Assembly (NCBI GenBank): GCA_910577875.1 | Contig: CAJTNY010000006.1 | Location: 397 to 64,396, forward strand | Length of the DNA: 64,000 nt | Origin: an uncultured Christensenella sp. | GTDB taxonomy: Bacteria > Bacillota > Clostridia > Christensenellales > Borkfalkiaceae | Reading direction: 5' to 3' | Part shown: positions 1,545-64,000 of the stretch, one piece after another | Layout of the letters: each line of letters starts with the position of its first letter | How positions within the stretch are numbered: the stretch's first letter is position 1 | Program-made: the position numbers and the translations under genes | The notes under the pieces: model-generated | What the model was told of the DNA's origin: nothing | The model's input: the letters and a program-made list of their open reading frames with translations, nothing else | The model's database searches: none

Positions 1545-1564
1545 AATAATTCGCGATAGAAGTT

Positions 1565-2804: not shown

Positions 2805-2833
2805 AGATACATAGTTTACTCAGGGTAGTTTCA

Positions 2834-3259: not shown

Positions 3260-3261
3260 CT

Positions 3262-4203: not shown

Positions 4204-4223
4204 TTACGGTAAGGAGAAAAATT

Positions 4224-4952
4224 ATGGCAGTTGCATCGCCCGTATTGGAAAGGAATGCCGATACCGAAGAAAAAGAATATACAAGAGAATATCGCGATTC
4301 TTATTTAAGCGAGGAAGAGAGGCATAATTCGCGCATAAGCGAAAACTATGCGAGATTAATCAATCCCGAGAGCAGAACGAAAGATATACTGCCTTCAAGA
4401 AGCGCGGAGAAGGAAATTACAGTCGAGCAGACGGAAACTAATTCTGCTGCGCGTGAAATTTTATTCCAAAGACCTTATCTTGTTGAAAATGCGCGTGCCG
4501 ACGCGGATATTTTCCGTGCCGACAGCTCGGTTAACCGCAAGTTGTTTTCTGCGGAAACGGCGGTTCCTGAGTCTGTGACGGACGAGGAAGAGAACGAGGA
4601 TCTTCGTCCCACGCAGACAACAATTCAGTATAAAACTGCGGGAGTGGTAAAAACCGTTGAAGAAGGTAAAATTGCAACAAGACCTTCGCAGACAAAGCGT
4701 TCTGCTTTGACAAAGAAAGACAGAATAATAATAGCCGTTGCACTGTCGGTGATAGTTGCTTTATTTATACTTATAATAGTTAACTCGGCTGTTATTTCTA
4801 ACTTGAACAAAGAAGTCGGTGCGTTGCAAAACAATTTGACGCAGGCTGAAAACGCTTATTCGGAAGCTCTTGCCGAAACGGAAGATTTTAAGTCCAATTG
4901 GTATCAGGAAGTAGAGGATTTTGCAAATAAAAACGGAATGATTCTCGGTTAA
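4224..4952 (+). CDS. FtsL-like cell division protein with long N-terminal extension
   Basis: AAGGAG RBS 7 nt before the ATG at 4224, which is better than the track start at 4167. Single TM (IIIAVALSVIVALFILIIVNSAVI) followed by a short coiled-coil tail. Positioned between rsmH and the PBP. Confidence 0.55.
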   Translation: MAVASPVLERNADTEEKEYTREYRDSYLSEEERHNSRISENYARLINPESRTKDILPSRSAEKEITVEQTETNSAAREILFQRPYLVENARADADIFRADSSVNRKLFSAETAVPESVTDEEENEDLRPTQTTIQYKTAGVVKTVEEGKIATRPSQTKRSALTKKDRIIIAVALSVIVALFILIIVNSAVISNLNKEVGALQNNLTQAENAYSEALAETEDFKSNWYQEVEDFANKNGMILG

Positions 4953-4959
4953 GGAGACA

Positions 4960-6720: not shown

Positions 6721-6728
6721 GTAGGAAT

Positions 6729-8165
6729 ATGAAAATCGGCGAACTTTTAAAATACTTAGATTATAAAGAATTTACGGGCGACAGAGAAACGGTTTTTACG
6801 GGACTGTGTGCAGACAGTCAGAAAGTTAAACGCGGAGACTTGTTCTTTTGCTATGAAGGCGAAAATCACGATTCGCATCAATTTATATTCGAAGCTGAGA
6901 AAGCGGGTGCTTCGGCGGTTGTCTGCGAGAAAAGACTGCAGTGCACGCTCCCTCAGATTATAGTTGAAAACGGAAGAAAAGCCATCGCTCCTTCTGCACG
7001 TGCTTTTTACGGTTTTTCTGATAAGAAATTAAAAATCGTTGGAATCACGGGTACCAACGGCAAAACTACAACCGCTTATATGTTAGACGGTATTTTTAAG
7101 TCAGCCGGTAAAAAGACGGGTGTAATAGGGACTCTGGGTATAAGTTATGCCGATAAATTCGTTTCTCCCGAACTTACCACTCCTGACCCTATATTTCTGC
7201 ACTCTATATTTTTTGATATGTTAAACTGCGGTGTTGAATACGTGTTTATGGAGGTATCAGCTCACGCGCTTTATTACGATAAAATACACGGGCTGAAATT
7301 CGAAGTCGGCATTTTTACAAATTGCACTCAGGACCATCTCGACTTTTTTAAGAATATGGACGAGTACTCGGAATGCAAAAAGCTTTTGTTCGCTGACGGC
7401 AGGTGCGCATATTCTGTAATAAATTCCGACGATAATCTCGGACGTTGTATACTCGGGGATTGTAAAAACGTTATAAGTTACGGTCTGAAAAATCCTGCCG
7501 ACGTTTTTGCGGTAAATATTTCCGAGCGCATAGACGGTACTTCGTTCGTGATAAATCTTTTGGACGAACTGTACGATATGAAATTAAATCTGCCTGCGCT
7601 GCATAACGTTTATAATGCAATGGGCGCGGCGGCGTGCGCTAAAATTCTCGGCGTAAAGACGGAACATATTGCCAAAGGGTTAAGCGCTCTGAAAAACGTT
7701 TCGGGAAGATTGGAAAGAGTTGCAAGGTATAACGGCGCGGATATTTTCGTTGATTTTGCACATACTCCCGACGGACTCGAAAAATCTTTGCAAGCTTTGA
7801 AAAAATTATGTCAAGGCAAGCTTTATTGCCTTTTCGGTTGCGGCGGCAACAGGGATAAAAGCAAAAGACCACTTATGGGTGCGATAGCATCGAAGTATGC
7901 AGATTTTTGCATTATAACTTCGGATAACCCTCGGTATGAGGACCCGTATGATATCATTTCGGAAATAGAGGCGGGATTTAAGCCTTCGGGGAAAAAATAT
8001 GTAACCGTAACGGAGCGTGAAACCGCAACGGAATACGCGATTAATTTGCTTGAAAAAGACGATATCCTACTGGTTGCCGGAAAGGGCGGCGAATATTATC
8101 AGGAAATAATGGGAATAAAACATAGCTACAACGACAATACGGTAATAAAAAAAATCATCGGATAA
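6729..8165 (+). CDS. murE: UDP-N-acetylmuramoyl-L-alanyl-D-glutamate--2,6-diaminopimelate ligase
   Basis: GITGTNGKTTT P-loop. The DNPR motif (TSDNPRYEDP) is associated with meso-DAP-adding MurE enzymes. Confidence 0.9.
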   Translation: MKIGELLKYLDYKEFTGDRETVFTGLCADSQKVKRGDLFFCYEGENHDSHQFIFEAEKAGASAVVCEKRLQCTLPQIIVENGRKAIAPSARAFYGFSDKKLKIVGITGTNGKTTTAYMLDGIFKSAGKKTGVIGTLGISYADKFVSPELTTPDPIFLHSIFFDMLNCGVEYVFMEVSAHALYYDKIHGLKFEVGIFTNCTQDHLDFFKNMDEYSECKKLLFADGRCAYSVINSDDNLGRCILGDCKNVISYGLKNPADVFAVNISERIDGTSFVINLLDELYDMKLNLPALHNVYNAMGAAACAKILGVKTEHIAKGLSALKNVSGRLERVARYNGADIFVDFAHTPDGLEKSLQALKKLCQGKLYCLFGCGGNRDKSKRPLMGAIASKYADFCIITSDNPRYEDPYDIISEIEAGFKPSGKKYVTVTERETATEYAINLLEKDDILLVAGKGGEYYQEIMGIKHSYNDNTVIKKIIG

Positions 8166-8171
8166 TTATTA

Positions 8172-9116
8172 ATGAAAACTTTTCTTGCGGTTATGCTTGC
8201 CGCGTTCGGCGCTTCGCTGTTTTTGCTTTTGATTACGTTGCCGCTTTTAAAGAGATTGAAAGCGGGACAATATATTTTGGGTTACGTCAAAGAACATAAA
8301 GACAAGGGCGGTACTCCGACGATGGGGGGGCTTGCTTTCATTGCGGCAATAATTGCTGTCGGATTGTGTGCGCTCGGTGTTCGTGACGGTAAAGTCAATA
8401 TGACGCTTGCGGTAACGGGAGGATTTACAATCGTCGGCTTTTTGGACGATTTTTTAAAAATTTACCGTAAGGACAACGGTGGGCTCAAACCGTATCAGAA
8501 AATCATTTTTCAGTTAGCTATCGCAACAGTCGCGGCGGTATACTGTTATTTAAACGGAATCACGCGTCTTTTTATACCTTTTGCGGGAAAATCGGGGTTC
8601 GATATCGGTTGGGGAATTATTCCTCTTGTAATTTTGATTTTTATAGCGACAGTGAATTGCGTAAATTTGACGGACGGTCTCGACGGGCTTGCAGGCGGGA
8701 CAAGCACTGCATATTTGCTGGTGTTCGGAATTATCCTGTATATGCAAGGGAATGGTTCCGCAACGCTTTGTTTTATCGCGGTCGGCGCATTGTCGGCGTT
8801 TTTGTTGCTGAACGTAAATAAAGCTTCGGTGTTTATGGGGGATACGGGTTCGCTCGCACTCGGCGGTTTTATTTCCTGCATATCCGTATTTTCTGGTAAT
8901 GCCTTTTATATTCCTGTTATCGGAATAATGTTCGTGATTTCGGGAATATCCGTTATAGTTCAGGTAATATATTATAAACGGACAAGGCGCAGGGTGTTTT
9001 TGATGGCTCCGATTCATCATCATTTTCAGATGAAGGGGCATACGGAATGTAAAATAGTTTATGCTTACGTTTTAATTACCGCGCTTGTCGGAATAATCTG
9101 TTTGTTGTTTGTGTGA
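8172..9116 (+). CDS. mraY: Phospho-N-acetylmuramoyl-pentapeptide transferase
   Basis: Polytopic membrane protein with NLTDGLDGLA and MGDTGSLALGG motifs. Confidence 0.93.
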   Translation: MKTFLAVMLAAFGASLFLLLITLPLLKRLKAGQYILGYVKEHKDKGGTPTMGGLAFIAAIIAVGLCALGVRDGKVNMTLAVTGGFTIVGFLDDFLKIYRKDNGGLKPYQKIIFQLAIATVAAVYCYLNGITRLFIPFAGKSGFDIGWGIIPLVILIFIATVNCVNLTDGLDGLAGGTSTAYLLVFGIILYMQGNGSATLCFIAVGALSAFLLLNVNKASVFMGDTGSLALGGFISCISVFSGNAFYIPVIGIMFVISGISVIVQVIYYKRTRRRVFLMAPIHHHFQMKGHTECKIVYAYVLITALVGIICLLFV

Positions 9117-9122
9117 GGAAAG

Positions 9123-10481
9123 ATGTATTTTAAGAATCAGAAATTTATGGTAGCGGGAATGTCTAAGTCGGGCGAGTGTGCGGCGCGCTTCCTTCTTGAA
9201 CGCGGCGCGGACGTTTATGTTTACGACGACTTTGCAAACGATAAGGTTACTGCGGTTATGAACGAGTTTCAATCTCTCGGCGCGCATATTGTAACCGCTG
9301 AAAGTTACATAGACGCAACGCTTGTCTGCGACGTGCTTGTTTTAAGTCCGGGAATACCGATAGATAATCCGTTGCCTGTCGCGTTCAGAAAACAGGGAAA
9401 AGCGATAATAGGCGAAGAAGAGCTCGGTGCACTGTTTTTAAGAGCGACGGCAATTGCTGTTACGGGAACGAACGGTAAAACGACTACCGTATCAATGTTG
9501 AATTCCGTGCTTGAAAACGCAGGGTTGAAAAGTGTCGCCTGCGGTAATATCGGTAATCCTTTGGTTGGCGAGACGGAAAATCTCGGGTTTAACGATTATG
9601 CGGTTATAGAAGTTTCGTCTTTTCAGCTCGAAACGCTTTCCAGCCTTCGTCCGCACATAGCGATTGTTACCAATGTGACGGAAGATCATCTGAACCGTCA
9701 CTACAATATGGAAAATTACGTATATCTAAAAAGCAAATTGCTACGCAATCTTCGTGAAAGCGAATATGCAGTTTTAAATTATGACGATGAAGTTGTTCGC
9801 GGATTTGCCAAACTTACGAAAGCAAAGGTTATTTATTTTTCTATGCAGGAAAATAAGGATGGCGCGTATTTTGAGAACGGAGAGGTTTATTTTAATGGCG
9901 AAAAATATTTTGACGCCGACGAAATGACGCTCGGCGGGGTACATAATATTTATAATGCGCTTGCTTGCGTTGCCGCCGCTCATATACTCGGTATTAATAA
10001 GGACAAAGTCGCCGAAGCAATATGCTCGTTTAAAGGTATTAGACATCGTATAGAAGTAATCAGAACCGTAAACGGCGTAACTTATTATGACGACAGTAAA
10101 GGAACCAATGTCGATGCGACCGTTAAAGCGGTTCAGTCTATGACGGAACCTACGATAATTCTTTTGGGCGGTAAAGATAAGGGTTATGATTACGTTCCTT
10201 TATTTCAAGCGCTAAAAAACAGCAGGGTGATTCACGCGGTGCTGTACGGAGAAAACAGATTTAAGCTTCTCAATGCCGCAATAAAATCTGGCTTTACTGC
10301 TTTCGCGCTATGTTCCGAGTTTGAAACAGCTTTCCGTCTTGCGCGGTTTATTGCAAAATCAGGACAAAACGTATTGTTAAGTCCCGCAAGTTCGAGCTTC
10401 GATAGTTTTTCCAATTACGAGGAGCGCGGCGACGCGTTCAAGAAACTTGTGGAAGGAATAAATGAAGCGTTTGAAGATTAA
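9123..10481 (+). CDS. murD: UDP-N-acetylmuramoylalanine--D-glutamate ligase
   Basis: Rossmann N-terminus (VAGMSKSG), GTNGKTTT P-loop, Mur ligase C-terminal domain. GAGGAAAG RBS. Confidence 0.9.
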   Translation: MYFKNQKFMVAGMSKSGECAARFLLERGADVYVYDDFANDKVTAVMNEFQSLGAHIVTAESYIDATLVCDVLVLSPGIPIDNPLPVAFRKQGKAIIGEEELGALFLRATAIAVTGTNGKTTTVSMLNSVLENAGLKSVACGNIGNPLVGETENLGFNDYAVIEVSSFQLETLSSLRPHIAIVTNVTEDHLNRHYNMENYVYLKSKLLRNLRESEYAVLNYDDEVVRGFAKLTKAKVIYFSMQENKDGAYFENGEVYFNGEKYFDADEMTLGGVHNIYNALACVAAAHILGINKDKVAEAICSFKGIRHRIEVIRTVNGVTYYDDSKGTNVDATVKAVQSMTEPTIILLGGKDKGYDYVPLFQALKNSRVIHAVLYGENRFKLLNAAIKSGFTAFALCSEFETAFRLARFIAKSGQNVLLSPASSSFDSFSNYEERGDAFKKLVEGINEAFED

Positions 10482-34319: not shown

Positions 34320-35393
34320 ATGAAAAACGGAACAGCGTATTTAACTTTACAAAACGGTAAGCAATTTGTAGGCAAACGCTTCGGTGCGGACGGCGATATT
34401 ATCGGTGAACTCGTGTTTACGACAGGTATGACGGGTTATATAGAAACATTGACCGACCCGAGTTATTATGGACAAATAGTTATGCAGACATTTCCGCTTA
34501 TAGGTAACTACGGCATTATACCGTCTGATTTTGAAAGCAAAAAACCCTGGGTTTCGGCTTATGTTGTAAGAGAGAAGTGCGACGAGCCTTCAAATTTCAG
34601 ATGCGAAAAAACTATCGACGAGTTTCTCTCCGAAAGCGGAATAGTCGGTTTATACGGTATAGACACACGCGAGCTCACGAAAATAGTCAGAGAAGCTGGA
34701 GTTATGAACGCGGCTATAACTTCCAAACCGCTGAAAGATTTGAGTCTGGTCAACGGTTATGTAATAAAGAACGCGGTCGACAGCGTTACTTGCAGGGAAT
34801 TACAGTATTACGGTAATCCGAACGGGATTAAATTAGTCGTTTGGGATTTCGGCGCAAAAGACAATATTATACGCGGACTCGTTAAACTCGGTTGTTATTG
34901 CATAAAAGTACCTTCGTTTTATACTGCGGAGCAAATATTAGAACTTAATCCCGCGGGACTTATGCTTACCAACGGACCCGGCGACCCTGCCGATAACAAA
35001 GGAATAATCGAAAACCTTAAAAAACTGGCGGGCAAGCTTCCTATATTCGGAATTTGTTTGGGGCATCAGTTATTGGCGCTTGCGATGGGCGGTAAAACCA
35101 AGAAAATGAAGTACGGACACAGGGGCGCGAACCAGCCGGTTAAAAATCTCGTAACAGGCAGAGTTTATATTTCGAGCCAGAACCACGGTTTCGAGGTGGT
35201 GACTTCGAGTCTGCGCGCGGGGAAACTATCTTATATCAACGTTAACGACAATACCTGCGAGGGTATAGATTATCCGGAACTCAACGCGTTTAGCGTGCAG
35301 TTTCATCCGGAAGCTTGCGGAGGTCCTCACGACGCTTCTTACCTTTTCGATAAATTTATAATCAACATTAAGGACGGAAAGTATAATGCCTAA
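34320..35393 (+). CDS. carA: Carbamoyl-phosphate synthase small (glutaminase) subunit
   Basis: Class I GATase triad context GICLGHQLL and HPE. Overlaps the carB start. Confidence 0.95.
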   Translation: MKNGTAYLTLQNGKQFVGKRFGADGDIIGELVFTTGMTGYIETLTDPSYYGQIVMQTFPLIGNYGIIPSDFESKKPWVSAYVVREKCDEPSNFRCEKTIDEFLSESGIVGLYGIDTRELTKIVREAGVMNAAITSKPLKDLSLVNGYVIKNAVDSVTCRELQYYGNPNGIKLVVWDFGAKDNIIRGLVKLGCYCIKVPSFYTAEQILELNPAGLMLTNGPGDPADNKGIIENLKKLAGKLPIFGICLGHQLLALAMGGKTKKMKYGHRGANQPVKNLVTGRVYISSQNHGFEVVTSSLRAGKLSYINVNDNTCEGIDYPELNAFSVQFHPEACGGPHDASYLFDKFIINIKDGKYNA

Positions 35394-38300
35394 GAGAGAA
35401 GATATTAAAAAAGTACTTGTGATAGGTTCGGGTCCGATTGTTATCGGACAAGCTGCTGAATTCGACTATGCCGGCGCACAGGCTTGTCGCGTGCTTAAAG
35501 ACGCGGGTATCGATGTTGTTTTGTGCAATTCGAATCCTGCTACGATAATGACGGATCGCGCTCTTGCGGACGAAATTTATCTCGAACCTTTAACTGTAGA
35601 TAGTTTAAAAAGAATTATCGTTAAAGAGCGTCCCGACAGTCTTTTGGCTTCGCTTGGTGGTCAAACCGGGCTTACGCTCGGTTGTCAGCTTGCAAAGTCG
35701 GGGTTCCTCGACGAATACGGAGTAAAATTAATAGGAGTAAATCTCGAATCAATCGACCGAGCGGAAGATAGGGAGCTGTTTAAGGAAACGATGCAGAAAA
35801 TCAATCAGCCTGTCGTTCCCTCGGATATAGCTTATACCGTAGAAGAGTGCGTGGCAATCGCGGAAAAAATCGGTTATCCTGTAATCGTACGTCCGGCCTA
35901 CACGCTCGGCGGAGCGGGTGGCGGAGTTGCCGAAAACGAAGAAGAGCTTAGAATGATTTCGCATAACGGATTGATGCTTTCGCCTATTACGCAGGTACTG
36001 ATTGAAAAATTTATTGGCGGTTGGAAGGAAATCGAATTCGAAGTTCTGCGCGACGGCGCAGGAAACGTTCTTACGGTGTGTTCTATGGAAAATATAGACC
36101 CCGTAGGAATTCACACGGGCGATTCGATAGTAATAGCACCTGCTGTAACGCTTTCCGATAAAGAATACCAGATGCTTAGAACCGCTTCGCTTGATATTAT
36201 AACTGAACTCGGTATAGAGGGAGGCTGTAACTGTCAGTTTGCGCTTCATCCCGATTCGTTCGAATATGCGGTAATAGAAGTAAATCCCCGAGTTTCGCGT
36301 TCTTCCGCACTCGCTTCCAAAGCGACGGGATTCCCAATTGCAAAGGTATCGACTAAAATTGCGCTCGGATATACGTTAGACGAGATAAAGAACGATGTTA
36401 CAGGCAAAACATATGCCTCTTTCGAGCCCACAATAGATTATGTCGTCGTCAAACTTCCTAAATGGCCGTTCGATAAATTTCTTTATGCGAAGAGAAATCT
36501 CGGAACAAGAATGAAAGCGACCGGCGAAGTCATGGCGATAGGAACCAGCTTTGAAATGGCTATTATGAAGGCTGTAAGAGGCGCGGAAATTTCTGTTGCG
36601 ACGTTAAATCTTCCCAAATTTGCCGCGCTTTCAGACGATGAAATCATCGAAAAACTTTCAGAGCTTACCGATGAAAGATTATTTGTCGTTTATGAGGCTA
36701 TAAAACGCGGTGTTCCGATTGAAAAAATTTATTCGATTACTAAAATCGACGAATGGTTTTTATATAAATTTAAAAATCTTTCCGATTATGAAAAGGAAAT
36801 TTCCGGAGTTAAGATAACGCCCGAACAGTATCTGCGCGGTAAAAAACTCGGTTATCCAGATAGAGAACTTGAAAAGTTCTCCGGCTGTGCGCTTCCTAAG
36901 CACGTAAACGCTGTATTTAAAATGGTTGACACGTGCGCTGCGGAATTTTCCGCGCAAACGCCTTATTTCTATTCGACGTACGATGAAAAGGAACATGACG
37001 AAGCAAGACAGTTTGTAAAATCCGGAACTAAGAAGAGAATAGTGGTTATCGGTTCGGGTCCTATAAGAATAGGTCAGGGTATAGAGTTCGATTATTCTTC
37101 CGTACATTGTGTATGGGCTTTGAAGCGTTTAGGATACGAAGTTGTAATTATAAACAATAACCCCGAAACTGTTTCGACGGACTTTGATACTGCAGACAGA
37201 TTGTACTTCGAAGCATTGACTCCCGAAGATGTTCAGAATGTTCTCGATATAGAAAAACCTTACGGTGTTGTTATAACGTTCGGCGGACAGACTGCTATCA
37301 AGCTTTGTAGTTATCTCGATAAGAAAGGAGTGCGTATTCTCGGAACGCCTGCGGACAGCGTAGACCTTGCCGAGGACAGGGAGAGATTTGACGCTCTTTT
37401 GGAACAGTTCGGTATTGCACGCCCCAAGGGACTTACGGTAATGACTAAAGAAGAGGCAGTGCGTGCGGCCGAAACGCTTGGTTATCCCGTACTTTTGCGA
37501 CCTTCATACGTTATCGGCGGACAGAATATGACTATTGCGTTTACGCAAAACGATATCGAAAGATATATGGACGTAATTCTCGCGCAGAACATTGAAAATC
37601 CCGTACTTTGCGATAAATATCTTATGGGAACAGAGCTCGAAGTTGATGCTATTTCCGACGGTACGGATGTACTGATTCCCGGCATAATGCAGCATATAGA
37701 AAGAGCGGGCGTTCACAGCGGAGACTCGATTGCGGTTTATCCTCCGTATAATTTAAGCGATGCGATGCTTAAAAAAGTAGTTGATATTTCGACTAAACTT
37801 GCAGTCTCTTTAAAAACCAAGGGATTAATCAATATACAGTATCTTATCTATCAGAACGAACTTTATGTTATAGAAGTAAACCCGAGAGCGTCGAGAACTA
37901 TTCCTTATATATCTAAAGTCACGGGCGTTCCTATGGTGGATATTGCAACGCAGATTTTAATGGGGGCAAAATTGAAAAAGCTCGGTTATGGTACGGGGCT
38001 TTATCCAAATTCTCCGTATGTGGCAGTCAAAGTGCCGGTTTTCTCGTTCGAGAAGCTCAATGATGTTAATTCACAGCTCGGTCCCGAAATGAAATCGACC
38101 GGAGAAGTGCTCGGTATCGGCAAGACAATTGAGGAAGCGCTTTTCAAAGGTCTTGTGTCTGCTGGGTTCAATATGAAACATCCGACGAAACAAAATCCGT
38201 CGGGGGTTTATCTTACTGTTAACGACCAGGATAAGTTTGAAATAGTTAATATAGTTAAAAAGTTTGCCGATCTCGGGCTTACGTTGTACGCTACGAAAGG

Positions 38301-39435
38301 CACTTGTCAGGTTATTAAAAGTCTCGGATTGGAATGCAGCGAAGTTGCGAGATTGTCCAGCAATGAAGAAATTTTCAAGCTTATGGACGAGGGTAAGATT
38401 GATTATATAGTTTATACAGGCAAAACGGATGTGGAGTCAATATCGAACTATATAAGTATGCATCATCACGCGATATTGCTCGGTATTACGGTTCTTACGT
38501 CTTTGGATACGGCTAACGCGCTTGCTGACGTAATTGCGGGTAGATATAATCAGTTCAATACCGAACTCGTGGATATAAACAAGCTTAGAAAAGAGAAATT
38601 AAAACTTAATTTCTGTAAAATGCACAGTTGCGGAAACGATTACATTTTCTTCAATAATATGGACGGAGGTATAACGTGTCCCGAATCACTTGCGATTAAT
38701 TTTTCCGACAGACATAATGCTATCGGCGCGGACGGGGTTGTAATGATAGAAAAGTCCGATGTTGCCGATGCGAAAATGAGAGTGTTCGGCAAAGACGGTA
38801 GCGAATGCGGTCTTGCGGCAAATCCGTTAAGGTGCGTTGCGAAATATCTATTTGATAATGGTTTGGTAGCTGAAACGGTTAAAGTAGAGTGTAACTGCGG
38901 AGTTAAAGAACTTTCAGTAAACTCTTTCAACGGCAAGGCAAGTTCGGTTTCCGTCAATCTCGGTAAAGCTGTATTTAACGGAAGTTTTATACCTTCGGAA
39001 TTCGACGGTAATATTATAGATAAAGAATTAAGCTTCGGCGGTCAGACATATAGAACGACGCTTATTAATGTGGGCAATACTCATTGCATAGTTTATTGTG
39101 AAACAATCGATGATATAGATATCGAAGCTTTGGGTCAGGCAGTTAACGATTCAGGTTATTTTCCTCACGGGGTGTTTGTGGAATGCGTGCGTATAGTAAA
39201 CAACGTTACCGTAAAAATGCGCGTTTGGGATAAAGTGAACGGTGAAACGCGTTCGTGCGGAACGGCGGCTGCTGCCGTAGCTGTTGCCGCCATCGTTGGC
39301 GGTTACTGTCGCAAAAATGAAATTATTACCGTTAAATCCAACGGCGGGGATTTATTTGTTAAGCTAAACGAGAACGATGAAATCGAGCTTGACGGAACGG
39401 TTAAACAATCTTTTGAAGGCACGATAGAGATTTAA
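35386..39435 (+). CDS. carB: Carbamoyl-phosphate synthase large subunit fused to a C-terminal DapF-like (diaminopimelate epimerase fold) domain
   Basis: Two ATP-grasp halves and an MGS-like domain up to about residue 1070, then a continuous frame into about 275 aa that starts LNFCKMHSCGNDY. Total 1349 aa, versus about 1070 aa for typical CarB. Confidence 0.9.
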   Translation: MPKREDIKKVLVIGSGPIVIGQAAEFDYAGAQACRVLKDAGIDVVLCNSNPATIMTDRALADEIYLEPLTVDSLKRIIVKERPDSLLASLGGQTGLTLGCQLAKSGFLDEYGVKLIGVNLESIDRAEDRELFKETMQKINQPVVPSDIAYTVEECVAIAEKIGYPVIVRPAYTLGGAGGGVAENEEELRMISHNGLMLSPITQVLIEKFIGGWKEIEFEVLRDGAGNVLTVCSMENIDPVGIHTGDSIVIAPAVTLSDKEYQMLRTASLDIITELGIEGGCNCQFALHPDSFEYAVIEVNPRVSRSSALASKATGFPIAKVSTKIALGYTLDEIKNDVTGKTYASFEPTIDYVVVKLPKWPFDKFLYAKRNLGTRMKATGEVMAIGTSFEMAIMKAVRGAEISVATLNLPKFAALSDDEIIEKLSELTDERLFVVYEAIKRGVPIEKIYSITKIDEWFLYKFKNLSDYEKEISGVKITPEQYLRGKKLGYPDRELEKFSGCALPKHVNAVFKMVDTCAAEFSAQTPYFYSTYDEKEHDEARQFVKSGTKKRIVVIGSGPIRIGQGIEFDYSSVHCVWALKRLGYEVVIINNNPETVSTDFDTADRLYFEALTPEDVQNVLDIEKPYGVVITFGGQTAIKLCSYLDKKGVRILGTPADSVDLAEDRERFDALLEQFGIARPKGLTVMTKEEAVRAAETLGYPVLLRPSYVIGGQNMTIAFTQNDIERYMDVILAQNIENPVLCDKYLMGTELEVDAISDGTDVLIPGIMQHIERAGVHSGDSIAVYPPYNLSDAMLKKVVDISTKLAVSLKTKGLINIQYLIYQNELYVIEVNPRASRTIPYISKVTGVPMVDIATQILMGAKLKKLGYGTGLYPNSPYVAVKVPVFSFEKLNDVNSQLGPEMKSTGEVLGIGKTIEEALFKGLVSAGFNMKHPTKQNPSGVYLTVNDQDKFEIVNIVKKFADLGLTLYATKGTCQVIKSLGLECSEVARLSSNEEIFKLMDEGKIDYIVYTGKTDVESISNYISMHHHAILLGITVLTSLDTANALADVIAGRYNQFNTELVDINKLRKEKLKLNFCKMHSCGNDYIFFNNMDGGITCPESLAINFSDRHNAIGADGVVMIEKSDVADAKMRVFGKDGSECGLAANPLRCVAKYLFDNGLVAETVKVECNCGVKELSVNSFNGKASSVSVNLGKAVFNGSFIPSEFDGNIIDKELSFGGQTYRTTLINVGNTHCIVYCETIDDIDIEALGQAVNDSGYFPHGVFVECVRIVNNVTVKMRVWDKVNGETRSCGTAAAAVAVAAIVGGYCRKNEIITVKSNGGDLFVKLNENDEIELDGTVKQSFEGTIEI
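38602..39432 (+). other. DapF-like domain of the CarB fusion
   Basis: DapF landmarks present: KMHSCGNDY, DGSE....RCVAKY, VGNTHCIV, GETRSCGTAAAA. The first catalytic Cys position (CGNG) reads AANP. Confidence 0.75.
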
Positions 39436-56368: not shown

Positions 56369-57805
56369 ATGACGGATAATTCGGTTTATCAGAATCCTTT
56401 GATTACAAGATATGCAAGCAAGGTTATGGCGGAAAATTTTGCGGACGAAAAGCGTTTCCGTCTTTGGAGGAAACTTTGGATTTCGCTTGCGGAATCGGAA
56501 ATGGAACTTGGTCTTAAAATAACAAAGTCGCAAATCGACGAGATGAAAAAATATGCCGAGGATATAAATTTTGAGCTTGCCGAAAAATATGAACGCGAAG
56601 TCCGTCACGACGTTATGGCTCACGTTCACGCTTTCGGTGACCAGGCAAAATCGGCTATGCCGATAATACATCTCGGTGCGACGAGCTGTTTTGTGGATTG
56701 CAATTCCGAGTTGATAATTATTTACGATGCGTTGGAAATCATAAAAGCCAAGATTGTCAACGTTTTAGACAAGCTGAGCGCTTTTGCACTTAAATATAAG
56801 GATACGCCGACGCTCGGTTTTACGCACCTTCAACCCGCACAGCTTACGACAGTAGGCAAGCGTGCGACTCTTTGGTTGCAGGATTTGACTATGGACTATA
56901 AAAACCTTGTCAATCTTCAATCTGCTTTCAAGCTTCGCGGTGTTAAGGGTACTACGGGAACTCAGGCAAGTTTTATGGAATTGTTTGAGGGCGATGAGAA
57001 CAAAGTTAAAGAATTAGAAAAAAGAGTCGTTGAAAAACTCGGTTTCGATAAAGTTTACGGAGTAACGGGTCAAACATATCCGAGAAAATTCGATTACAAC
57101 GTTCTTTGCGTTCTTTCGCAGATTGCCCAGAGCGCGTACAAATTCTCTAATGATATTCGCATACTTCAAAATATGAAAGAAATAGAGGAACCGTTTGAAA
57201 AATCACAGATAGGTTCTTCTGCTATGGCTTATAAGCGTAACCCTATGCGTAGCGAGAGAATGGGCTCGCTTGCAAGGTTTGTAATTTCGCTCCCCGTAAA
57301 CTGCGCTATTACAGCGGGAACACAGTGGTTTGAAAGAACGCTCGATGATTCGGCAAATAGAAGAATTGTTAATGCTCAGGCTTTCCTTGCGCTTGACGGA
57401 ATACTCAATATTTATATGAATGTTTCTGAAAACCTTGTCGTTTACGATAAAGTTATAGCAAAGCATATTTCGGCGGAGCTTCCTTTTATGGCGACGGAAA
57501 ATATAATGATGGAGTGCGTTAAAGCCGGCGGTAACCGGCAGGAGTTGCACGAGAAGATTAGAGTGCTTTCAATGGAGGCAGGCAAAAATGTAAAAGAGCT
57601 TGGTAAGGAAAACAATCTTATTGAACTTATTAAGGCCGATAAAATATTTGCGGCTGTGCACGGTAAACTTGATGAAATTCTCGACGCGGGGAAATTTATC
57701 GGCAGAGCGCCTTCGCAGGTTACGGAATTTATTCAAAACGAAGTAGACCCTATATTAAAAGAAAACAGCGCCGTTCTCGGACAGAAAGGCGACGTTAAAA
57801 TTTAA
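56369..57805 (+). CDS. purB: Adenylosuccinate lyase
   Basis: 478 aa. Fumarate-lyase signature GSSAMAYKRNP. Confidence 0.95.
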   Translation: MTDNSVYQNPLITRYASKVMAENFADEKRFRLWRKLWISLAESEMELGLKITKSQIDEMKKYAEDINFELAEKYEREVRHDVMAHVHAFGDQAKSAMPIIHLGATSCFVDCNSELIIIYDALEIIKAKIVNVLDKLSAFALKYKDTPTLGFTHLQPAQLTTVGKRATLWLQDLTMDYKNLVNLQSAFKLRGVKGTTGTQASFMELFEGDENKVKELEKRVVEKLGFDKVYGVTGQTYPRKFDYNVLCVLSQIAQSAYKFSNDIRILQNMKEIEEPFEKSQIGSSAMAYKRNPMRSERMGSLARFVISLPVNCAITAGTQWFERTLDDSANRRIVNAQAFLALDGILNIYMNVSENLVVYDKVIAKHISAELPFMATENIMMECVKAGGNRQELHEKIRVLSMEAGKNVKELGKENNLIELIKADKIFAAVHGKLDEILDAGKFIGRAPSQVTEFIQNEVDPILKENSAVLGQKGDVKI

Positions 57806-57865
57806 ACATCGATTATAATAATAAACAGTTTCGCAAAGCTACGAAACCGTCTTCGGCGGAGCATT

Positions 57866-58036
57866 ATGAAAAAATACCGATAGTTCCTGTTGGTAATAAG
57901 CAGTGTATTGTGTTTGTTTGCTTTATTCGCTGTGTACGGTTGCAAAACGGACGAGATTGTAATTACGGAATATTCAATAAAGTATGAAACGGACGGAAAC
58001 GGCACGATTATTAGGAAAAACAACTCAACCAATTGA
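57866..58036 (+). pseudogene. Lipoprotein gene fragment with in-frame TAG at codon 6
   Basis: MKKYR-TAG-FLLVISSVLCLFALFAVYGC (lipobox VYGC). It ends at TGA 58034-58036, and the sequence continues in another frame (ORF 57984-58271). Confidence 0.45.
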
Positions 58037-58201
58037 CGAGAGAAAAGCCTGTTCGGCTGTAATGGGATTTGGTTTATATAGTAAAAGTACTATATTGACG
58101 GGGTTTGTAGATTATTCGGGCTATGTGGAACTGAAAGCGGTAACCGAGAGTGAAAATGAATCAGAAAAAGTATTAAAAAATCGAAAAATCAATATTGAAT
58201 A

Positions 58202-58429
58202 TTGTGGAGACGAAATAAATATGCGTTATACAACTTATTTGGCGAAATATTTGAAAACGCTCAATACATAGAATGGAATCTTGCTTTAATAGTTTCTGAA
58301 TCTCACAATGAGGCAATAAATTTATTTGAAAAAATCTCGGAATATATTTTAGATAAACGCAATTATCTTGCTCATCATTTTTTAAGCAAAACGATATTGT
58401 TAAACATAAAAACAACGAAAAATTTTTAA
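58202..58429 (+). pseudogene. HEPN-like remnant (Rx4H motif)
   Basis: A 75-codon fragment with DKRNYLAHHF (R-x4-H) near its end. Protein-like continuations occur in other frames upstream and downstream. No credible start or RBS. Confidence 0.3.
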
Positions 58430-58751
58430 GAAATAAAATAGGCGAATTGCAGAACATTTTTGACGCGATTTCAAAATTATAACAGTGCATTATCGGACTT
58501 TTATAGAAAGAATTTTAGGAAATAATAAAAGGTTTATATTTTTATAAGGATAGTATAGTTGTTGGAAACAAATTACCCGACAATAAGTAACAATTTCTAT
58601 TACCCGTTCACCTCCGTAACATTTAACGCATTTTTTAAGCGTTTTGGTGTAAAAACGGCATAAAAATGCCATTAGGCCAAATTACCCTAATGGCACTGCG
58701 CAACACGGAACATAAGTTAAAACCCTTGCGAGTGGGCTGGGTGGGAATAAA

Positions 58752-58779
58752 AGAAAAAAGCAATGCCTAAGCCATTGCT
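58752..58779 (-). terminator. Terminator-like hairpin (minus-strand orientation favoured)
   Basis: AGCAATG-cctaagc-CATTGCT. On the minus strand it is followed by TTTTTTCTTTT. Confidence 0.4.
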
Positions 58780-59003
58780 CTTATCTTTGAATGGGACAAA
58801 GCCCGAAACACCGTTAATGAAAATGTATTCCATTTTCTTAATATTCAAACTTTGTCGATTGTGGCAGGGGAGACACGAGCTTAACTTTAGGTTAAATTTA
58901 CGAAAAAATCCTTAAAATATTGTAAAAAACAAGTAAAATTAGATTAAAATGACTAAATTATTACTTTAAAAAAATGAAAATTTAAATTTTTTTAGAAATT
59001 TTA

Positions 59004-59032
59004 GTGGACACTTTTGTGTTCACTATTTTTTT
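59004..59032 (+). terminator. Terminator-like hairpin upstream of the large NTPase gene
   Basis: GTGGACAC-tttt-GTGTTCAC (one G-U), followed by TATTTTTTT. Confidence 0.4.
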
Positions 59033-59151
59033 AGAGTTTGCACTTACAAATTACAACTATAATTCGAAAGAAAATTGGAAATTATTGTGTAAATTGGTTT
59101 TTTCTGTTTTATAAAATATATAAAGATAATTAAAAATTTTTAGGCAAAATT

Positions 59152-62100
59152 ATGGTCGTTAAAAGACAAAAGAAAATTGAAGAACAAATGTTATTTGATA
59201 ATGCTCCAGTTGAAAGCGATGATTACGAAATCGAAGCGCAAATTTTGGATGCACAGGTGAAAAAGCAGAACGTTACAAATATAGGCGTTGTGGCAACTTA
59301 TGGTGCGGGTAAAAGCAGTGCTATTAATACTTATTTAAAAAGATATAGAAAAAAAGGGATATGCCAACCCAAACATGTACAGATTTCTTTAGCTGATTTT
59401 AATAAAGACGAAATCGATGCTAATAATGAAAATAATAATTACAGCGAGAATGCCATTGAAAGAAGTATCTTGCAACAATTATTTTATAGTCAAAAAAGAT
59501 ATAATTTACCGAAATCAAGTATTAATAGGACGAACAAGTCAAGTTGGTTGTTAACAACTGGTTGTGCGTTATTGTCTATAATTTTTATATTATCTGTTAT
59601 TGTATTATCCTTTGAAATAAGCGGTAACGGTTTATTTAATGTTAACAATTCTTCAATTGTTAATTCTATTGCAAGTTGCGTTGCAACGATTTCTTTAGTG
59701 GTCGCAATTATTTGTTTAGCTAAATTTGGATATCTAAAGAAAGTAAAGTACAAAGATTTAGAGATAGCTATTGATGAGAAAGGTAATGTTCCCCAAGATT
59801 ATTCGTTATTTAACAATTTTATTAATGAGGTGCTTTACTTTTTTGAGTGCATTAATGTCGATTTAGTTATATTTGAAGATTTAGACCGTTTAGATAATTT
59901 AAAAATATTTGTTAAACTTAGAGAGTTAAATACTATTATTAATAATAGTCCGAGAAAAGCAAATAAAGTTACGTTTATTTATGCAGTAAAAGATTCGATG
60001 TTTAAGGATGAAAATCAGAGAGCAAAATTTTTTGAATTTATTTTGCCTATAATTCCTGTAATTAATCCTGTAACTTCTTTTGATAATATCGATAAAATGC
60101 ATAAGCAGTTAGCTACTTTAGATTCTTCATTAAAATTGTCAGAACAATTTTTAAAAGATATTTCATTTTATGTTTCTGATATGCGAGTGCTTAAAAACAC
60201 ATTCAATGATTATGTTATTATGGTAAATAAATTATCGGAAAATTTAGATAATAAATTGCCGTTAAAGAAAGAGAATTTATTTGCTTTGGCTTTATATAAA
60301 AACTTATATCCCTATGACTACTCGAGATTGCAGAAGAATGAGGGATTAATACCACTATGCATAGAAAAAGATAAATTAATAGAGTATTACAAAACAGATA
60401 TTGTAAATCGAATTAATGACCTTGAAAGCGAGAAAAAAAGGATTGATAGTGAATTTTTAAAAGATTTTGAAGATTTAAAATTGATATTTAAAGGTCAACA
60501 TTTTTCTTGTAATACATTAAGCAAATATGGTATTGAATATGTTGACAATATAAATACGTTTGAAGGTATAAACTTTCTTCGTCATCCGGTTCATACGGGA
60601 TATGCGGTTCAAGTTCAAAATTTGCCTAATGGTGAATCTTATTTTGAAAGAGAGAAAATTATTAAAGATAAAACAAATGAAAGATTAGCCGAGATAGATA
60701 ATGAAATCAGAGAATGCAAAAGTAAAATTGAAGAAATAGAGATAAAAACTTTTAATTCTTTATTGAAAGATTATGGAATTGAAAAATATTTTTCGGAGGA
60801 AAATTTAGCAAAAATAAAAGCAGATTATAAAGAATTAATTGCAAATGAGCTGTTTAAAGGACAAGCGAAAGAAAAATTATTTAATGATGAAAATGAGAAA
60901 AGATTCGATTTGCAATCGGATTTTATAAGAATGCTGATACATAAAAATTATTTGGATGAAAATTATTTGGAATACACATCAAATAATATATCTGATTTGT
61001 CATTAAATGACAGAGAATTTATTCGTAACGTAAAACAAGGTTATGTTAGAACTTACAATTACAAATTGGATAATGTAAAGGCAGTAATTATCAGTTTGAA
61101 TGAAGAAGATTTCTTGCAACCTGCGGTATTGATTAAAGATATATGTTTATCATTAAGCAAAATACAAGCATTAGATTTTAATAACAAAAATAAATTCGAG
61201 AATATAATGTCATTATTAGCTACGGGTAGTAAGCTCGTGGTTAATGCCGTAATTGAATTTTTAAATGTTTCAAATAATGAAGAAAAAGCAGCTTTCTCGA
61301 AATATATTGCGGAATATTCTTCGGAACTTATTAAACCTCTATTTTTAAAAGATATAAGCAAAGTTGATAAAGATATTTTTATAAAAACGCTTATCAAAAA
61401 TAATAAGATTGATATATTGCAAAAGAAGGTAATTAAAAATTATATTCAGGAACATACGAAATATCTGCAATTATTTGATGATTTAAACTCATCAAGAGTA
61501 TGTGATTTGATAAATGTTTTAAATTTACAGTTTAATTTAATAGACTTAACTAATGGCAAAGATGAAGTTTATAAATTTATTGTTAATAGTGGGAATTACA
61601 ATCTTACAGTGGACAACCTAAAGATTATATTGGATATCAATGAGTCAAACATATTTGATTTTGAAGAGAAGAACTTTTCTTTTATTCCGGATAGCGGCAA
61701 TGATAGTTTAATTAATAAAATAAATCATAACTTGTCTGATTATTTAAATAACGTTTTTATTAAATTGCCTAATAGTAATGAATCAGAGAAGGTGTTTAAA
61801 GCATTTTTATTAAATAAAAAATTAGATAAAGAAACTAAATTAAAACTAATAAAACATTCTAAAGTAAAAATAGAAAATATTAAAGATTTAGATGAACAAC
61901 TTTATGAAGATTTACTTATTGCAAACAAAATTGAAGCATTATGGACGAATATTTTTTCAGTATATAAAATCAGTCAGTATAGGAATTCATTAAAAGAATA
62001 TATATCGTTGAATAACGGAAAAATAAATGGTTCATATGCTAAACAAGATATAAATTTGCTAATAGATTTATTTAATTACTTATTAGCAGCGAATTTATCA

Positions 62101-62763
62101 GAAGAAATATATTCAAATTTAGCTAAGTCAATAGATATTCATTTTACAATGACAAGTGCTTATGCAAAGAATGAAAATTGCAAACAATTTGTATTAAATG
62201 GCTGTTTCATATACAATGTAAACGATATGTCTTTAATGTCAAATACTCATAATATGTTTCCTTATTTGATATGCCATCAAGATGAAATATTAAAAGCAAT
62301 GAGTCAATTTTTTAGAGGGCACACATTTGAAGCTTCATATATGAAAGCAATAATTGATGACAAAGATTTAAGGACTGAATTTAAAAAAGAATTTGTTTTT
62401 AAATGCGGAGATTCATTAGTTGATTTAGTCGGCATAGAAACAAAACTTGCACAATTTATTGTAGATAGCAACTGCAATATGACTGAAAAACTTTTGTATA
62501 AATTTACAGATGTAAATATTGATGAATCATTGAAAGTTGAGTTGTTATCAATTGCTGTAAATCAAAATATAATAACAAACTTTAATAGTTTTAAAAGTTA
62601 TTTCACTTCTATTTCTGAAGATTATGCCGAACTGTGGAACGAGTCAAGGAAGACTATTTTGGAAGATACTCCTAAAATAAGGTCTATAGCGAATTATATG
62701 AAAGAAAAGGACATTGCTACATATACACCGAGAAAAGGTAAATTATATTTGCGGTGTTCGTAG
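59152..62763 (+). CDS. Giant KAP-family (YobI-like) P-loop NTPase with two transmembrane helices inserted in the NTPase domain
   Basis: Walker A GVVATYGAGKSS, two hydrophobic helices (residues about 130-195), Walker B LVIFEDLDRLDN, then about 900 aa of K/N/I/L-rich helical sequence. Strongly AT-rich. Weak RBS; ATG at 59188 is an alternative start. Confidence 0.8.
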   Translation: MVVKRQKKIEEQMLFDNAPVESDDYEIEAQILDAQVKKQNVTNIGVVATYGAGKSSAINTYLKRYRKKGICQPKHVQISLADFNKDEIDANNENNNYSENAIERSILQQLFYSQKRYNLPKSSINRTNKSSWLLTTGCALLSIIFILSVIVLSFEISGNGLFNVNNSSIVNSIASCVATISLVVAIICLAKFGYLKKVKYKDLEIAIDEKGNVPQDYSLFNNFINEVLYFFECINVDLVIFEDLDRLDNLKIFVKLRELNTIINNSPRKANKVTFIYAVKDSMFKDENQRAKFFEFILPIIPVINPVTSFDNIDKMHKQLATLDSSLKLSEQFLKDISFYVSDMRVLKNTFNDYVIMVNKLSENLDNKLPLKKENLFALALYKNLYPYDYSRLQKNEGLIPLCIEKDKLIEYYKTDIVNRINDLESEKKRIDSEFLKDFEDLKLIFKGQHFSCNTLSKYGIEYVDNINTFEGINFLRHPVHTGYAVQVQNLPNGESYFEREKIIKDKTNERLAEIDNEIRECKSKIEEIEIKTFNSLLKDYGIEKYFSEENLAKIKADYKELIANELFKGQAKEKLFNDENEKRFDLQSDFIRMLIHKNYLDENYLEYTSNNISDLSLNDREFIRNVKQGYVRTYNYKLDNVKAVIISLNEEDFLQPAVLIKDICLSLSKIQALDFNNKNKFENIMSLLATGSKLVVNAVIEFLNVSNNEEKAAFSKYIAEYSSELIKPLFLKDISKVDKDIFIKTLIKNNKIDILQKKVIKNYIQEHTKYLQLFDDLNSSRVCDLINVLNLQFNLIDLTNGKDEVYKFIVNSGNYNLTVDNLKIILDINESNIFDFEEKNFSFIPDSGNDSLINKINHNLSDYLNNVFIKLPNSNESEKVFKAFLLNKKLDKETKLKLIKHSKVKIENIKDLDEQLYEDLLIANKIEALWTNIFSVYKISQYRNSLKEYISLNNGKINGSYAKQDINLLIDLFNYLLAANLSEEIYSNLAKSIDIHFTMTSAYAKNENCKQFVLNGCFIYNVNDMSLMSNTHNMFPYLICHQDEILKAMSQFFRGHTFEASYMKAIIDDKDLRTEFKKEFVFKCGDSLVDLVGIETKLAQFIVDSNCNMTEKLLYKFTDVNIDESLKVELLSIAVNQNIITNFNSFKSYFTSISEDYAELWNESRKTILEDTPKIRSIANYMKEKDIATYTPRKGKLYLRCS

Positions 62764-62834
62764 AAAATATTTTATTTCCAATTTAAAAAATAGAGTGGAA
62801 ACAAAGTCTATGGAATAACAATACAATTGTTCAT

Positions 62835-62863
62835 TTGACATTTTGGTTTTCATTTCGTATAAT
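62835..62863 (+). promoter_or_regulatory. Perfect consensus sigma-A promoter
   Basis: TTGACA - 17 nt - TATAAT, 34 nt upstream of the zinc-ribbon ORF. Confidence 0.65.
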
Positions 62864-62897
62864 GTTTCAGTCAAATATTTGATTTGGAGATAACGAT

Positions 62898-63059
62898 ATG
62901 CTATATTCGGTAAAATGTCCGAATTGCGGAGCCGAGCAGAAAGGACTTGATTTGAAAGAAACCAACGGTTCGGTAGTATGTTCAGAGTGCGAAATGCAAT
63001 TCAAAGTCAAAGTGGAAGAAAAGAAAGAAGCAATACAACAAGCAGATACGGCGGAGTAA
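62898..63059 (+). CDS. 53-aa zinc-ribbon protein (not in ORF track, below size cutoff)
   Basis: GGAGA RBS 7 nt upstream. CPNC ... CSEC pairs 17 residues apart. Its own promoter and terminator. Confidence 0.55.
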   Translation: MLYSVKCPNCGAEQKGLDLKETNGSVVCSECEMQFKVKVEEKKEAIQQADTAE

Positions 63060-63075
63060 ATCCGCCGTTATTTTT
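63048..63075 (+). terminator. Intrinsic terminator after the zinc-ribbon ORF
   Basis: ACGGCGGA-gtaaa-TCCGCCGT followed by TATTTTT. The stop codon lies in the loop. Confidence 0.6.
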
Positions 63076-63100
63076 GTTTAAAAAAGTAAATACTAAACAT

Positions 63101-63364
63101 ATGGTAAATTACGAAAAGGTTTACGTTGCGGTGTATCTCAAAATTAACACGGACGGAATTATGAAGCCTGTGGCAATCGAATGGACGGACGGAGCGCGGT
63201 ATGATATAGATAAAATCATAGACGAACGCAACGCTCCGCCGGAACATACAGGAGGAGTGCTTACAAGAAGGTATAAGGTAATAATCAAGGGCAGAGAAAA
63301 GATTATTTATTTAGATAAACAGACGAACAGATGGTTCGTGGAAAGGTTTACGGGGCAGTCGTAA
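63101..63364 (+). CDS. Small conserved-looking protein preceding the Y-family polymerase
   Basis: The track ORF (62978-63364) overlaps the zinc-ribbon gene and its terminator, so a later start is needed. ATG 63101 has no RBS. ATG 63161 (MKPVAIEWTDG...) has GGACGGA upstream. Ends ...NRWFVERF. Confidence 0.5.
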   Translation: MVNYEKVYVAVYLKINTDGIMKPVAIEWTDGARYDIDKIIDERNAPPEHTGGVLTRRYKVIIKGREKIIYLDKQTNRWFVERFTGQS

Positions 63365-63392
63365 GCCTTTTTATTTTGCGCATAATAACCTT

Positions 63393-64000
63393 ATGCGGAC
63401 AATTCTTCACAGCGATTTAAATAACTTTTACGCTTCGGTCGAGTGTTTGAGAAACCCCGAAATACGCGATAGTCCCGTCGTCGTGGTCGGTAGTAAAGAA
63501 GACAGACACGGTATAGTTTTGGCGAAGAATATGATAGCCAAAAATTTCGGTGTAAAGACGGGCGACGTGTATTGGGAAGCCAAGCAAAAGTGTGGTAATA
63601 CGCTTATAGAAGTACCGGCAGATTTTATTACTTATCTTAACGTATCAAGAGAAGTCCGCGCTATCTACGAGGACTACACGGACAGAATAGAAGCCTACGG
63701 CATAGACGAATGTTGGTTGGACGTAACCAAGAGTGTGAAAGCTTTCGGTGGTGGCAAAGAGATTGCCGAAACTATAAGAGAAAGGATAAAACAAGAAATA
63801 GGACTTACTGTAAGCATAGGTGTGAGCTGGAACAAGATATTCGCAAAGCTCGGCTCTGATATGAAAAAGCCCGACGCAGTGACAGAAATTACACCCGAAA
63901 ACTATAAACTAAAAGTATGGACTTTACCCGTGGAAGATTTGCTTTACGTTGGTAAGGCAACGCAGCAAAAACTTAACCGCATGGGCATTAAGACGATAGG
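63393..64000 (+). CDS. Y-family DNA polymerase (DinB/UmuC-like), 3' end beyond window
   Basis: MRTILHSDLNNFYASVE (catalytic Asp context), then YGIDECWLDV and SIGVSWNKIFAKLGSD motifs. The open frame runs to the window end. Confidence 0.9.
   Translation, partial: MRTILHSDLNNFYASVECLRNPEIRDSPVVVVGSKEDRHGIVLAKNMIAKNFGVKTGDVYWEAKQKCGNTLIEVPADFITYLNVSREVRAIYEDYTDRIEAYGIDECWLDVTKSVKAFGGGKEIAETIRERIKQEIGLTVSIGVSWNKIFAKLGSDMKKPDAVTEITPENYKLKVWTLPVEDLLYVGKATQQKLNRMGIKTI

Follow-up and report, generated by a model that had tools for sequence, protein, structure and literature searches.

A Clostridial member of the Tmn family of transmembrane P-loop NTPases, a likely single-gene anti-phage system, in a variable chromosomal hotspot

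Tmn is among the few membrane-integrated phage defences in which one protein both senses and acts. Gao et al. 2020 (ref. 19 in PMC13001434) reported it to be anti-phage, and the Escherichia coli representatives, such as Tmn-25 (WP_064055658.1) from IncF plasmids, figure in that report, in Wu et al. 2024 and in PMC13001434. Synergy between Tmn and the Gabija and Septu systems has been studied (10.1101/2022.08.21.504612), and the mechanism has been characterised in a 2026 preprint (PMC13001434). Here we describe a gene, denoted tmn below, at positions 59152 to 62763 of a 64,000-nucleotide stretch of DNA from an uncultured Christensenella sp. (GenBank assembly GCA_910577875.1, contig CAJTNY010000006.1, positions 397 to 64,396; this whole stretch is the window). 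Its product is a Clostridial, YobI-type transmembrane P-loop NTPase of the Tmn family that probably works as a self-contained anti-phage system. An earlier note on this DNA had proposed the gene as a defence candidate with an undescribed mechanism. Given the preprint, this second claim does not stand: the locus is not an undescribed system, and it adds a Clostridial, horizontally acquired example to a single-gene anti-phage family that has already been described.

According to the preprint, Tmn has an NTPase core and two transmembrane (TM) helices, joined by a proximal arm, made of a coiled coil and a variable alpha/beta part, and by a distal solenoid of the ARM/HEAT-like kind; Tmn-25 forms a decameric membrane complex, and the phage protein bound by its arms in the cytosol is RIIB of T2 (PMC13001434). 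In activated Tmn-25, ATP turnover goes up, Mg2+ is exported and ATP collapses, with plasmolysis and a halt of phage development in the absence of depolarisation or leakage (PMC13001434). The drop in ATP can activate ATP-depletion sensors, for example, Gabija and Septu I (PMC13001434; 10.1101/2022.08.21.504612). In a PADLOC survey, Tmn was present in 5,915 of 223,572 genomes (24% Bacillota) and fell into ten clades, with no conserved operon.

The KAP NTPases (Kidins220/ARMS, PifA; PF07693) are likewise membrane-associated P-loop NTPases implicated in phage exclusion. However, PifA causes membrane depolarisation and nucleotide leakage, neither of which was observed with Tmn. Avs and the bacterial STAND NTPases follow the same logic as Tmn, in that a large single polypeptide binds a phage protein through a repeat-solenoid sensor and the NTPase transduces. 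Unlike these, a Tmn-type protein belongs to another NTPase family, has no separate effector domain and is embedded in the membrane, and Tmn is reported to be a decamer whereas Avs/STAND proteins are tetramers.

In the window, tmn is an intact, ATG-started open reading frame (ORF) of 1203 amino acids (aa) plus the stop codon, with the following features:

59152..62763, + strand: complete tmn-like gene (ORF list, PF20693, PADLOC Tmn, hhalign to E. coli Tmn)
59239..60351, + strand: PF20693 match, residues 30-400 (Pfam; alpha/beta core in the AlphaFold2 model)
59284..59319, + strand: Walker A motif GVVATYGAGKSS, residues 45-56, including G53 and K54
59542..59613, + strand: TM helix 1, SWLLTT...VLSF, residues 131-154 (hydropathy peak 2.64; long helix in the AlphaFold2 model)
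59668..59736, + strand: TM helix 2, IASCVA...FGYL, residues 173-195 (hydropathy peak 2.49; long helix in the AlphaFold2 model)
59863..59898, + strand: Walker B motif LVIFEDLDRLDN, residues 238-249, including D243 and R246
60352..60876, + strand: proximal arm, approximately residues 401-575, with a coiled coil and a small beta element; contains Y497 and R500
60886..62640, + strand: distal arm, approximately residues 579-1163, an all-alpha solenoid and the presumed trigger sensor (AlphaFold2, Foldseek, hhalign)
62653..62757, + strand: small C-terminal alpha/beta element, approximately residues 1168-1202 (AlphaFold2)

The Walker A pattern GxxxxGK[ST] is satisfied by YGAGKSS (residues 50-56) and the Walker B pattern hhhhEDLDR by LVIFEDLDR (residues 238-246), and the corresponding alignment columns are invariant. 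Both TM helices fall between the two motifs, inside the P-loop domain, and these are the only two segments of the protein with a Kyte-Doolittle hydropathy above 1.6 in 19-residue windows. There are four lysines and arginines before the first TM helix, five after the second one and none in the 18-residue connecting loop; under the positive-inside rule, this distribution agrees with a membrane hairpin and a cytoplasmic location of both large portions of the protein. The ORF, the Walker A motif, the two hydrophobic helices and the hhhhEDLDR-type Walker B motif all lie where the earlier note had placed them. The protein as a whole is rich in K, N, I and L. It had been described as the product of the largest non-housekeeping ORF in the window, which is correct because the sole longer ORF (35386-39435, 1349 aa) encodes a CarB-DapF fusion and the 1074-aa ORF encodes FtsK.

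Membership of the protein in the Tmn family is nearly certain. The Pfam family PF20693 (YobI-like P-loop NTPase, YobI-ATPase) matched with an E-value of 2.7e-94 and 317.1 bits, against a gathering cut-off of 27, and the match extends over profile positions 3-362 of 363, that is, the whole domain. Tmn (PDLC02220) was the one PADLOC family matched (E 2.3e-56, 189 bits; residues 32-998 aligned to profile positions 46-1058 of 1273). The Pfam and PADLOC searches that had been proposed as checks were thus both positive, and the description of the protein as a YobI-like, membrane-inserted P-loop NTPase is borne out. The accompanying KAP label has fared less well, in that the Pfam scan yielded no match to KAP_NTPase (PF07693) at E <= 1; because earlier papers also named Tmn a KAP NTPase, we regard this as a matter of classification rather than a faulty observation. 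On this point, the literature disagrees: YobI is phylogenetically distinct from KAP in PMC13001434, and papers from 2023-2025, including 10.1101/2022.08.21.504612, class Tmn as a KAP NTPase. The Pfam scan of the protein also showed no sign of an added effector domain. In size and layout, the protein resembles Bacillus subtilis YobI, as the earlier note had remarked, in keeping with the match to the whole PF20693 profile.

At least 2829 homologues were found in a large protein database, most of those listed being 1150-1340 aa long. PF20693 is present in all full-length homologues listed, and the two listed proteins without it are both truncated (749 and 875 aa). A tblastn search of plasmids returned 628 records, mainly E. 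coli IncF plasmids with 26-31% identity, and the copies on these IncF plasmids carry the annotation 'anti-phage transmembrane ATPase'.

In WP_064055658.1 (E. coli plasmid, 1273 aa), all residues that were mutated in Tmn-25 were found at their published numbers (positions 33, 66, 67, 183, 262, 276, 279, 297, 325, 326, 374, 506, 541, 544 and 867). The numbering is that of Tmn-25, and this sequence can therefore be used as the experimental reference. Another protein of 1273 aa, P0106, was ruled out as E. coli Tmn, to which it is 24% identical. Comparison of WP_064055658.1 with alignment A1, a profile of 97 homologues of the window protein, using hhalign yielded a probability of 100% and an E-value of 1e-63 over 1074 aligned columns (A1 columns 44-1226 against residues 44-1245 of 1273). 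The approximately 900 C-terminal residues, in which initially no motif had been recognised, are therefore homologous along their length to Tmn's two arms, proximal and distal. Nine NTPase residues (G53, K54, Y229, D243, R246, N264, K292, F293 and R345) correspond, in this order, to G66, K67, Y262, D276, R279, N297, K325, F326 and R374 of Tmn-25, and all nine are invariant in 98 of the 98 sequences of the joint conservation alignment. Mutation of these residues in Tmn-25 abolishes defence (PMC13001434). In the proximal arm, Y497 and R500 align to the essential Y541 and R544 of Tmn-25; F506 of Tmn-25 aligns to T469, beside the invariant F470, and this position is ambiguous.

Like E. coli Tmn, then, the Clostridial protein is a single-gene system in which the Walker A motif, two TM helices and an hhhhEDLDR Walker B motif occur in that order and are combined with a coiled-coil proximal arm and an alpha-solenoid distal arm, and the homology is essentially full-length. 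Unlike E. coli Tmn, which is encoded on enterobacterial plasmids, it is 70 residues shorter and is encoded on a chromosome, in an uncultured Clostridia bacterium.

The AlphaFold2 model, built for residues 4-1203 with alignment A1, has a mean predicted local distance difference test (pLDDT) score of 81.9 and a predicted template modelling (pTM) score of 0.51. In it, the P-loop core is alpha/beta and the hydrophobic segments form two long helices; there are also a coiled coil formed by residues 403-429 and 494-528 together with a small beta element, and approximately 42 helices between residues 576 and 1160, with pLDDT mostly at 85-91 in this solenoid. The C-terminal element includes strands at model positions 1165-1168, 1186-1191 and 1194-1199. 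Two stretches of low confidence (pLDDT below 50) lie at model positions 112-128 and 190-210. As predicted, this fold is the published Tmn layout. A search of the Protein Data Bank (PDB) sequences with the family profile identified no solved relative, and a Foldseek search of the PDB with the full model returned nothing at E <= 1e-3 (best E 2.7e-3). The weak matches were to karyopherin/exportin HEAT/ARM solenoids, on the one hand, and to AAA+ (ORC4, Cdc6, TnsC) and RdrA-type ATPases, on the other hand; in the model, these fit the two halves of the protein and prove nothing more. Because these matches are weak, we leave the repeat types of the solenoid unassigned.

By homology with Tmn-25, an anti-phage function of this protein is likely. 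Under this model, the protein would oligomerise in the membrane, and its solenoid arms would bind a phage protein made early in infection (PMC13001434). Binding would switch on ATP hydrolysis, such that ATP drops and the cell loses ions by export (in E. coli, Mg2+); the cytoplasm would then collapse and phage development would halt, limiting the spread of the phage through the population. The trigger in this lineage probably differs from RIIB of T2 because the distal arm is the divergent part of the protein. Mg2+ export with plasmolysis is a plausible specific output in this host, and less firm than the rest of the model, given that the host presumably is monoderm and that a single preprint, with a map at 11.6 A, is the source of the mechanism.

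Several observations weigh against a straightforward transfer of the Tmn model to this protein. The PADLOC match ends at residue 998, covering approximately 80% of the profile, and was judged by E-value rather than by the coverage thresholds of PADLOC. An NCBIfam scan of the 1203-aa protein, which had been suggested with the YobI family in mind, returned no families at E <= 1. With BLASTP, the identity to E. coli Tmn is 28% over the N-terminal 760 residues (E 1e-53), and the distal arm does not align. The Tmn variants tested so far, the enterobacterial ones and those of one other clade, belong to clades Ia, Ib and VIII and were all assayed in E. coli; the mechanism itself rests on the single preprint and its 11.6 A map (PMC13001434). 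In a presumably monoderm host, plasmolysis as seen in E. coli, with the inner membrane detaching from the outer one, may not transfer. Finally, there is no strong sigma-70 consensus in the region scanned immediately upstream of tmn (59071-59151).

These considerations bear most directly on the output. A Tmn-family sensor with another output in a monoderm host, namely, ATP depletion alone, export of another ion or a PifA-like permeabilisation, would agree with the suggestion of the preprint authors that homologues may export other ions or respond to other triggers (PMC13001434), with the high divergence of the arm from E. coli Tmn, and with the weak conservation and low model confidence of the TM hairpin and its loop. 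Nevertheless, conservation extends to the entire NTPase core and to every essential residue, the homology to E. coli Tmn runs from end to end, and the sequence lacks any sign of an added effector domain, so that we consider a changed output distinctly unlikely. It also appears rather unlikely, if somewhat less so, that the Clostridial branch is mechanistically distinct in a broader sense, with a trigger from phages of Gram-positive anaerobes and, in a cell that lacks an outer membrane, an output other than Mg2+-driven plasmolysis. Some of the unannotated cargo of the hotspot might, in addition, be new defence genes. The present result is otherwise annotation rather than discovery, and the residual interest lies in a well-supported representative from Gram-positive anaerobes, in graded natural alleles and in the hotspot that carries the gene. 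A well-conserved Clostridial Tmn could serve to probe whether the mechanism holds in Gram-positive anaerobes and whether the arm determines specificity there; close alleles exist at 69-94% identity, and once synonymous change is taken into account, they differ more in the distal arm.

The gene is part of a variable island, delimited as follows:

57806..62897, no strand assigned: AT-rich variable island, 27% GC, approximately 5 kb (composition; the cargo varies among related genomes)
59002..59025, + strand: terminator-like hairpin and T-run that separates tmn from the upstream debris (consensus scan only)
59071..59151, + strand: the 81 bp upstream of tmn that are shared, along with the gene, by other genomes; 5' leader, possibly with a promoter (blastn)

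The island is bounded by purB on one side and, on the other side, by a block that consists of a Zn-ribbon gene (53 aa), an 87-aa gene and dinB. The GC content of the tmn ORF is 26.2%, compared to 40.7% for the window without positions 57806-62897, as expected from the remark in the earlier note that the gene is more AT-rich than its flanks, and the GC content at third codon positions is 0.21 in tmn versus 0.39-0.49 in the adjoining core genes. Homology at the DNA level (blastn) begins 81 bp upstream of the start codon (59071) in three related loci, L001, L005 and L018, and 290 bp upstream in a fourth one, L003; in L003 and L005, it stops at the tmn stop codon. The exchanged unit is therefore essentially the gene alone. 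In the comparison with L003, groEL has a synonymous divergence (dS) of 1.41 and groES one of 1.05, and for purB and the dCMP deaminase gene dS has reached saturation; the value for tmn is 0.15, and on the dinB side it lies at 0.47-0.53. Because the dS of tmn is far below that of the upstream core genes, the gene must have moved between these lineages long after they diverged. The anomalous GC content, the limits of the homology and the dS of 0.15 against values above 1 all agree with horizontal acquisition, as had been proposed, and the sequence comparison points to a recent horizontal exchange of tmn. The locus is also a clean example of how a defence cassette that consists of a single gene has been exchanged among diverged genomes, at a chromosomal hotspot in which no mobility gene is visible.

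On the right flank (63048-64000), the dS of approximately 0.5 against L003 is itself lower than in the upstream core genes (above 1), and part of this flank may have been brought along with the cargo through recombination at the hotspot. Neither a tRNA nor an integrase is located near the island, and a search for att-like direct or inverted repeats around it detected nothing beyond short, AT-rich chance matches. A close relative of tmn was present in one of 185,579 species-representative genomes, a metagenome-assembled genome of an uncultured Clostridia bacterium, and the phage database contained no match for the protein or the upstream debris.

The gene neighbourhoods of the relatives bear on the alternative that the protein, as a membrane NTPase of the YobI family, functions in something other than defence, for example, in NTP-dependent assembly of membrane complexes or in signalling, and that the defence-like context is incidental. 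B. subtilis YobI itself is uncharacterised and is not known to have an assigned function. Moreover, in four related genomes tmn occupies the same place, upstream of the block that includes the 87-aa gene, dinB, Ku and LigD, which could be read as a fixed context; in full, the conserved right flank comprises the 87-aa gene, dinB, SRAP, rhodanese, rubredoxin, Ku and LigD. However, the left flank and the co-cargo change from genome to genome. In L003 (94% allele), the left side (groEL, groES, dCMP deaminase, peptidyl-prolyl isomerase and purB) is syntenic with the window, and tmn lies between ORFs of 79 and 185 aa and an ORF of 317 aa that is followed by the 87-aa gene and dinB. In L001 (89% allele), the left flank is pfkA/pfkB, and in L005 (78% allele), tmn is followed by ORFs of 251, 501 and 49 aa, a radical-SAM/SPASM gene, the 87-aa gene and dinB. 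The neighbours differ across all seven contexts examined, with no conserved partner gene, in line with the initial proposal of a stand-alone, single-gene defence candidate.

Farther homologues are found in unrelated defence or mobile contexts, as emerged from the proposed inspection of their neighbourhoods. Defence genes adjoin the tmn homologue in L008 (Eco57I-type methylase, T5orf172/ResIII, PRTase-CE, an RVT_1 reverse transcriptase and HTH_3-DUF3990), L010 (helicase, SNF2, bAvd, DUF4391 and methylase), L012 (Wadjet JetABCD, a DpnII restriction-modification system, HipA and an OLD-type ATPase) and L015 (a resolvase/Rep element that carries SIR2 and methylases). Combined with the presence of a close relative in a single species-representative genome, the low dS compared to the flanking core genes, the anomalous GC content and the strong match to the defence-curated Tmn model, these contexts make a role outside defence very unlikely.

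The comparison of alleles further shows that tmn is under purifying selection: over the full length, the ratio of nonsynonymous to synonymous divergence (dN/dS) is 0.10-0.19. In the three closest comparisons, it is 0.06-0.14 for the NTPase part and 0.27-0.29 for the distal arm, a pattern that would be expected if the arm tunes specificity. Together with the intact catalytic residues, all of which are retained, these values are hard to reconcile with an inactive relic, that is, a horizontally acquired gene decaying amid debris. Such a relic would fit the adjacent 1.3 kb of gene debris and the upstream region of tmn, in which neither a clear promoter nor a strong ribosome-binding site was seen. 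However, given the base composition of the ORF, stop codons are expected at 9.8% of the codons, and the chance of 1203 codons without a stop is therefore about 1e-54, so that an intact 3.6-kb frame at 26% GC argues strongly against decay. In addition, other metagenome assemblies hold stretches that are identical to the window, and the copies of the gene in them are identical over the recovered stretches. The split ORF of L019 was ruled out as a natural pseudogene, the apparent split being a scaffold gap filled with Ns. A relic is thus exceedingly improbable, and a functional Tmn-family defence protein remains our preferred reading.

The remaining part of the island, 57806-59151, contains short ORFs only, with no family matches. 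The earlier note had referred to gene debris in this region, and this is borne out in part. The segment at 57863-58055 is 77% identical to the 5' end of a surface-protein gene located elsewhere in L003 (position 20818, approximately 7 kb downstream of tmn); the equivalent position in L001 is taken by an 801-aa Flg_new_2 repeat protein. Because the segment encodes a lipoprotein-like signal sequence and then stops short, it represents genuine gene debris. A 75-aa ORF at 58202-58429 includes KRNYLAHH, an Rx4H motif of the HEPN-domain kind, and shows a weak PADLOC match (E 0.001) to a model for type I methyltransferases. This ORF may be what is left of an earlier defence gene at the hotspot.

When the small flanking ORFs, together with the unannotated neighbours in L001, L003, L005 and L008, were scanned with Pfam and PADLOC, nothing significant emerged, the sole results being a generic Zn-ribbon and two weak matches, to the type I methyltransferase just mentioned and to Arm-DNA-binding (E 0.0011). 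Cargo of the hotspot without a family match includes ORFs of 317 aa in L003, 258 aa in L001, and 251, 501 and 49 aa in L005. These ORFs, as well as the radical-SAM/SPASM gene of L005, may represent further defence genes or genes of the type associated with ribosomally synthesised and post-translationally modified peptides (RiPPs). In L008 (positions 1-9944), the 69% tmn allele lies at the edge of a dense defence island, in which the adjacent PRTase-CE and RVT_1 genes are retron-like and which also holds an unannotated 261-aa gene.

Downstream of tmn, a perfect sigma-70 consensus (TTGACA, 17 nt, TATAAT) is located at 62835-62863, directly upstream of the 53-aa CxxC...CxxC zinc-ribbon ORF (62898-63059), which is shared by the window, L001 and L002 but not by L003 or L005. 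Between the stop codon of tmn and this promoter, there is no terminator-like site. In an Rfam scan of 57500-64000, the sole match was a sub-threshold one to ctRNA_p42d at 63340-63379 (24.9 bits against a gathering cut-off of 50), which is simply the terminator hairpin after the 87-aa gene. Far from the island, the CarB-DapF ORF at 35386-39435 consists of a complete carbamoyl-phosphate synthase large chain and a C-terminal DAP_epimerase domain (Pfam, E 5.9e-34), an unusual fusion.

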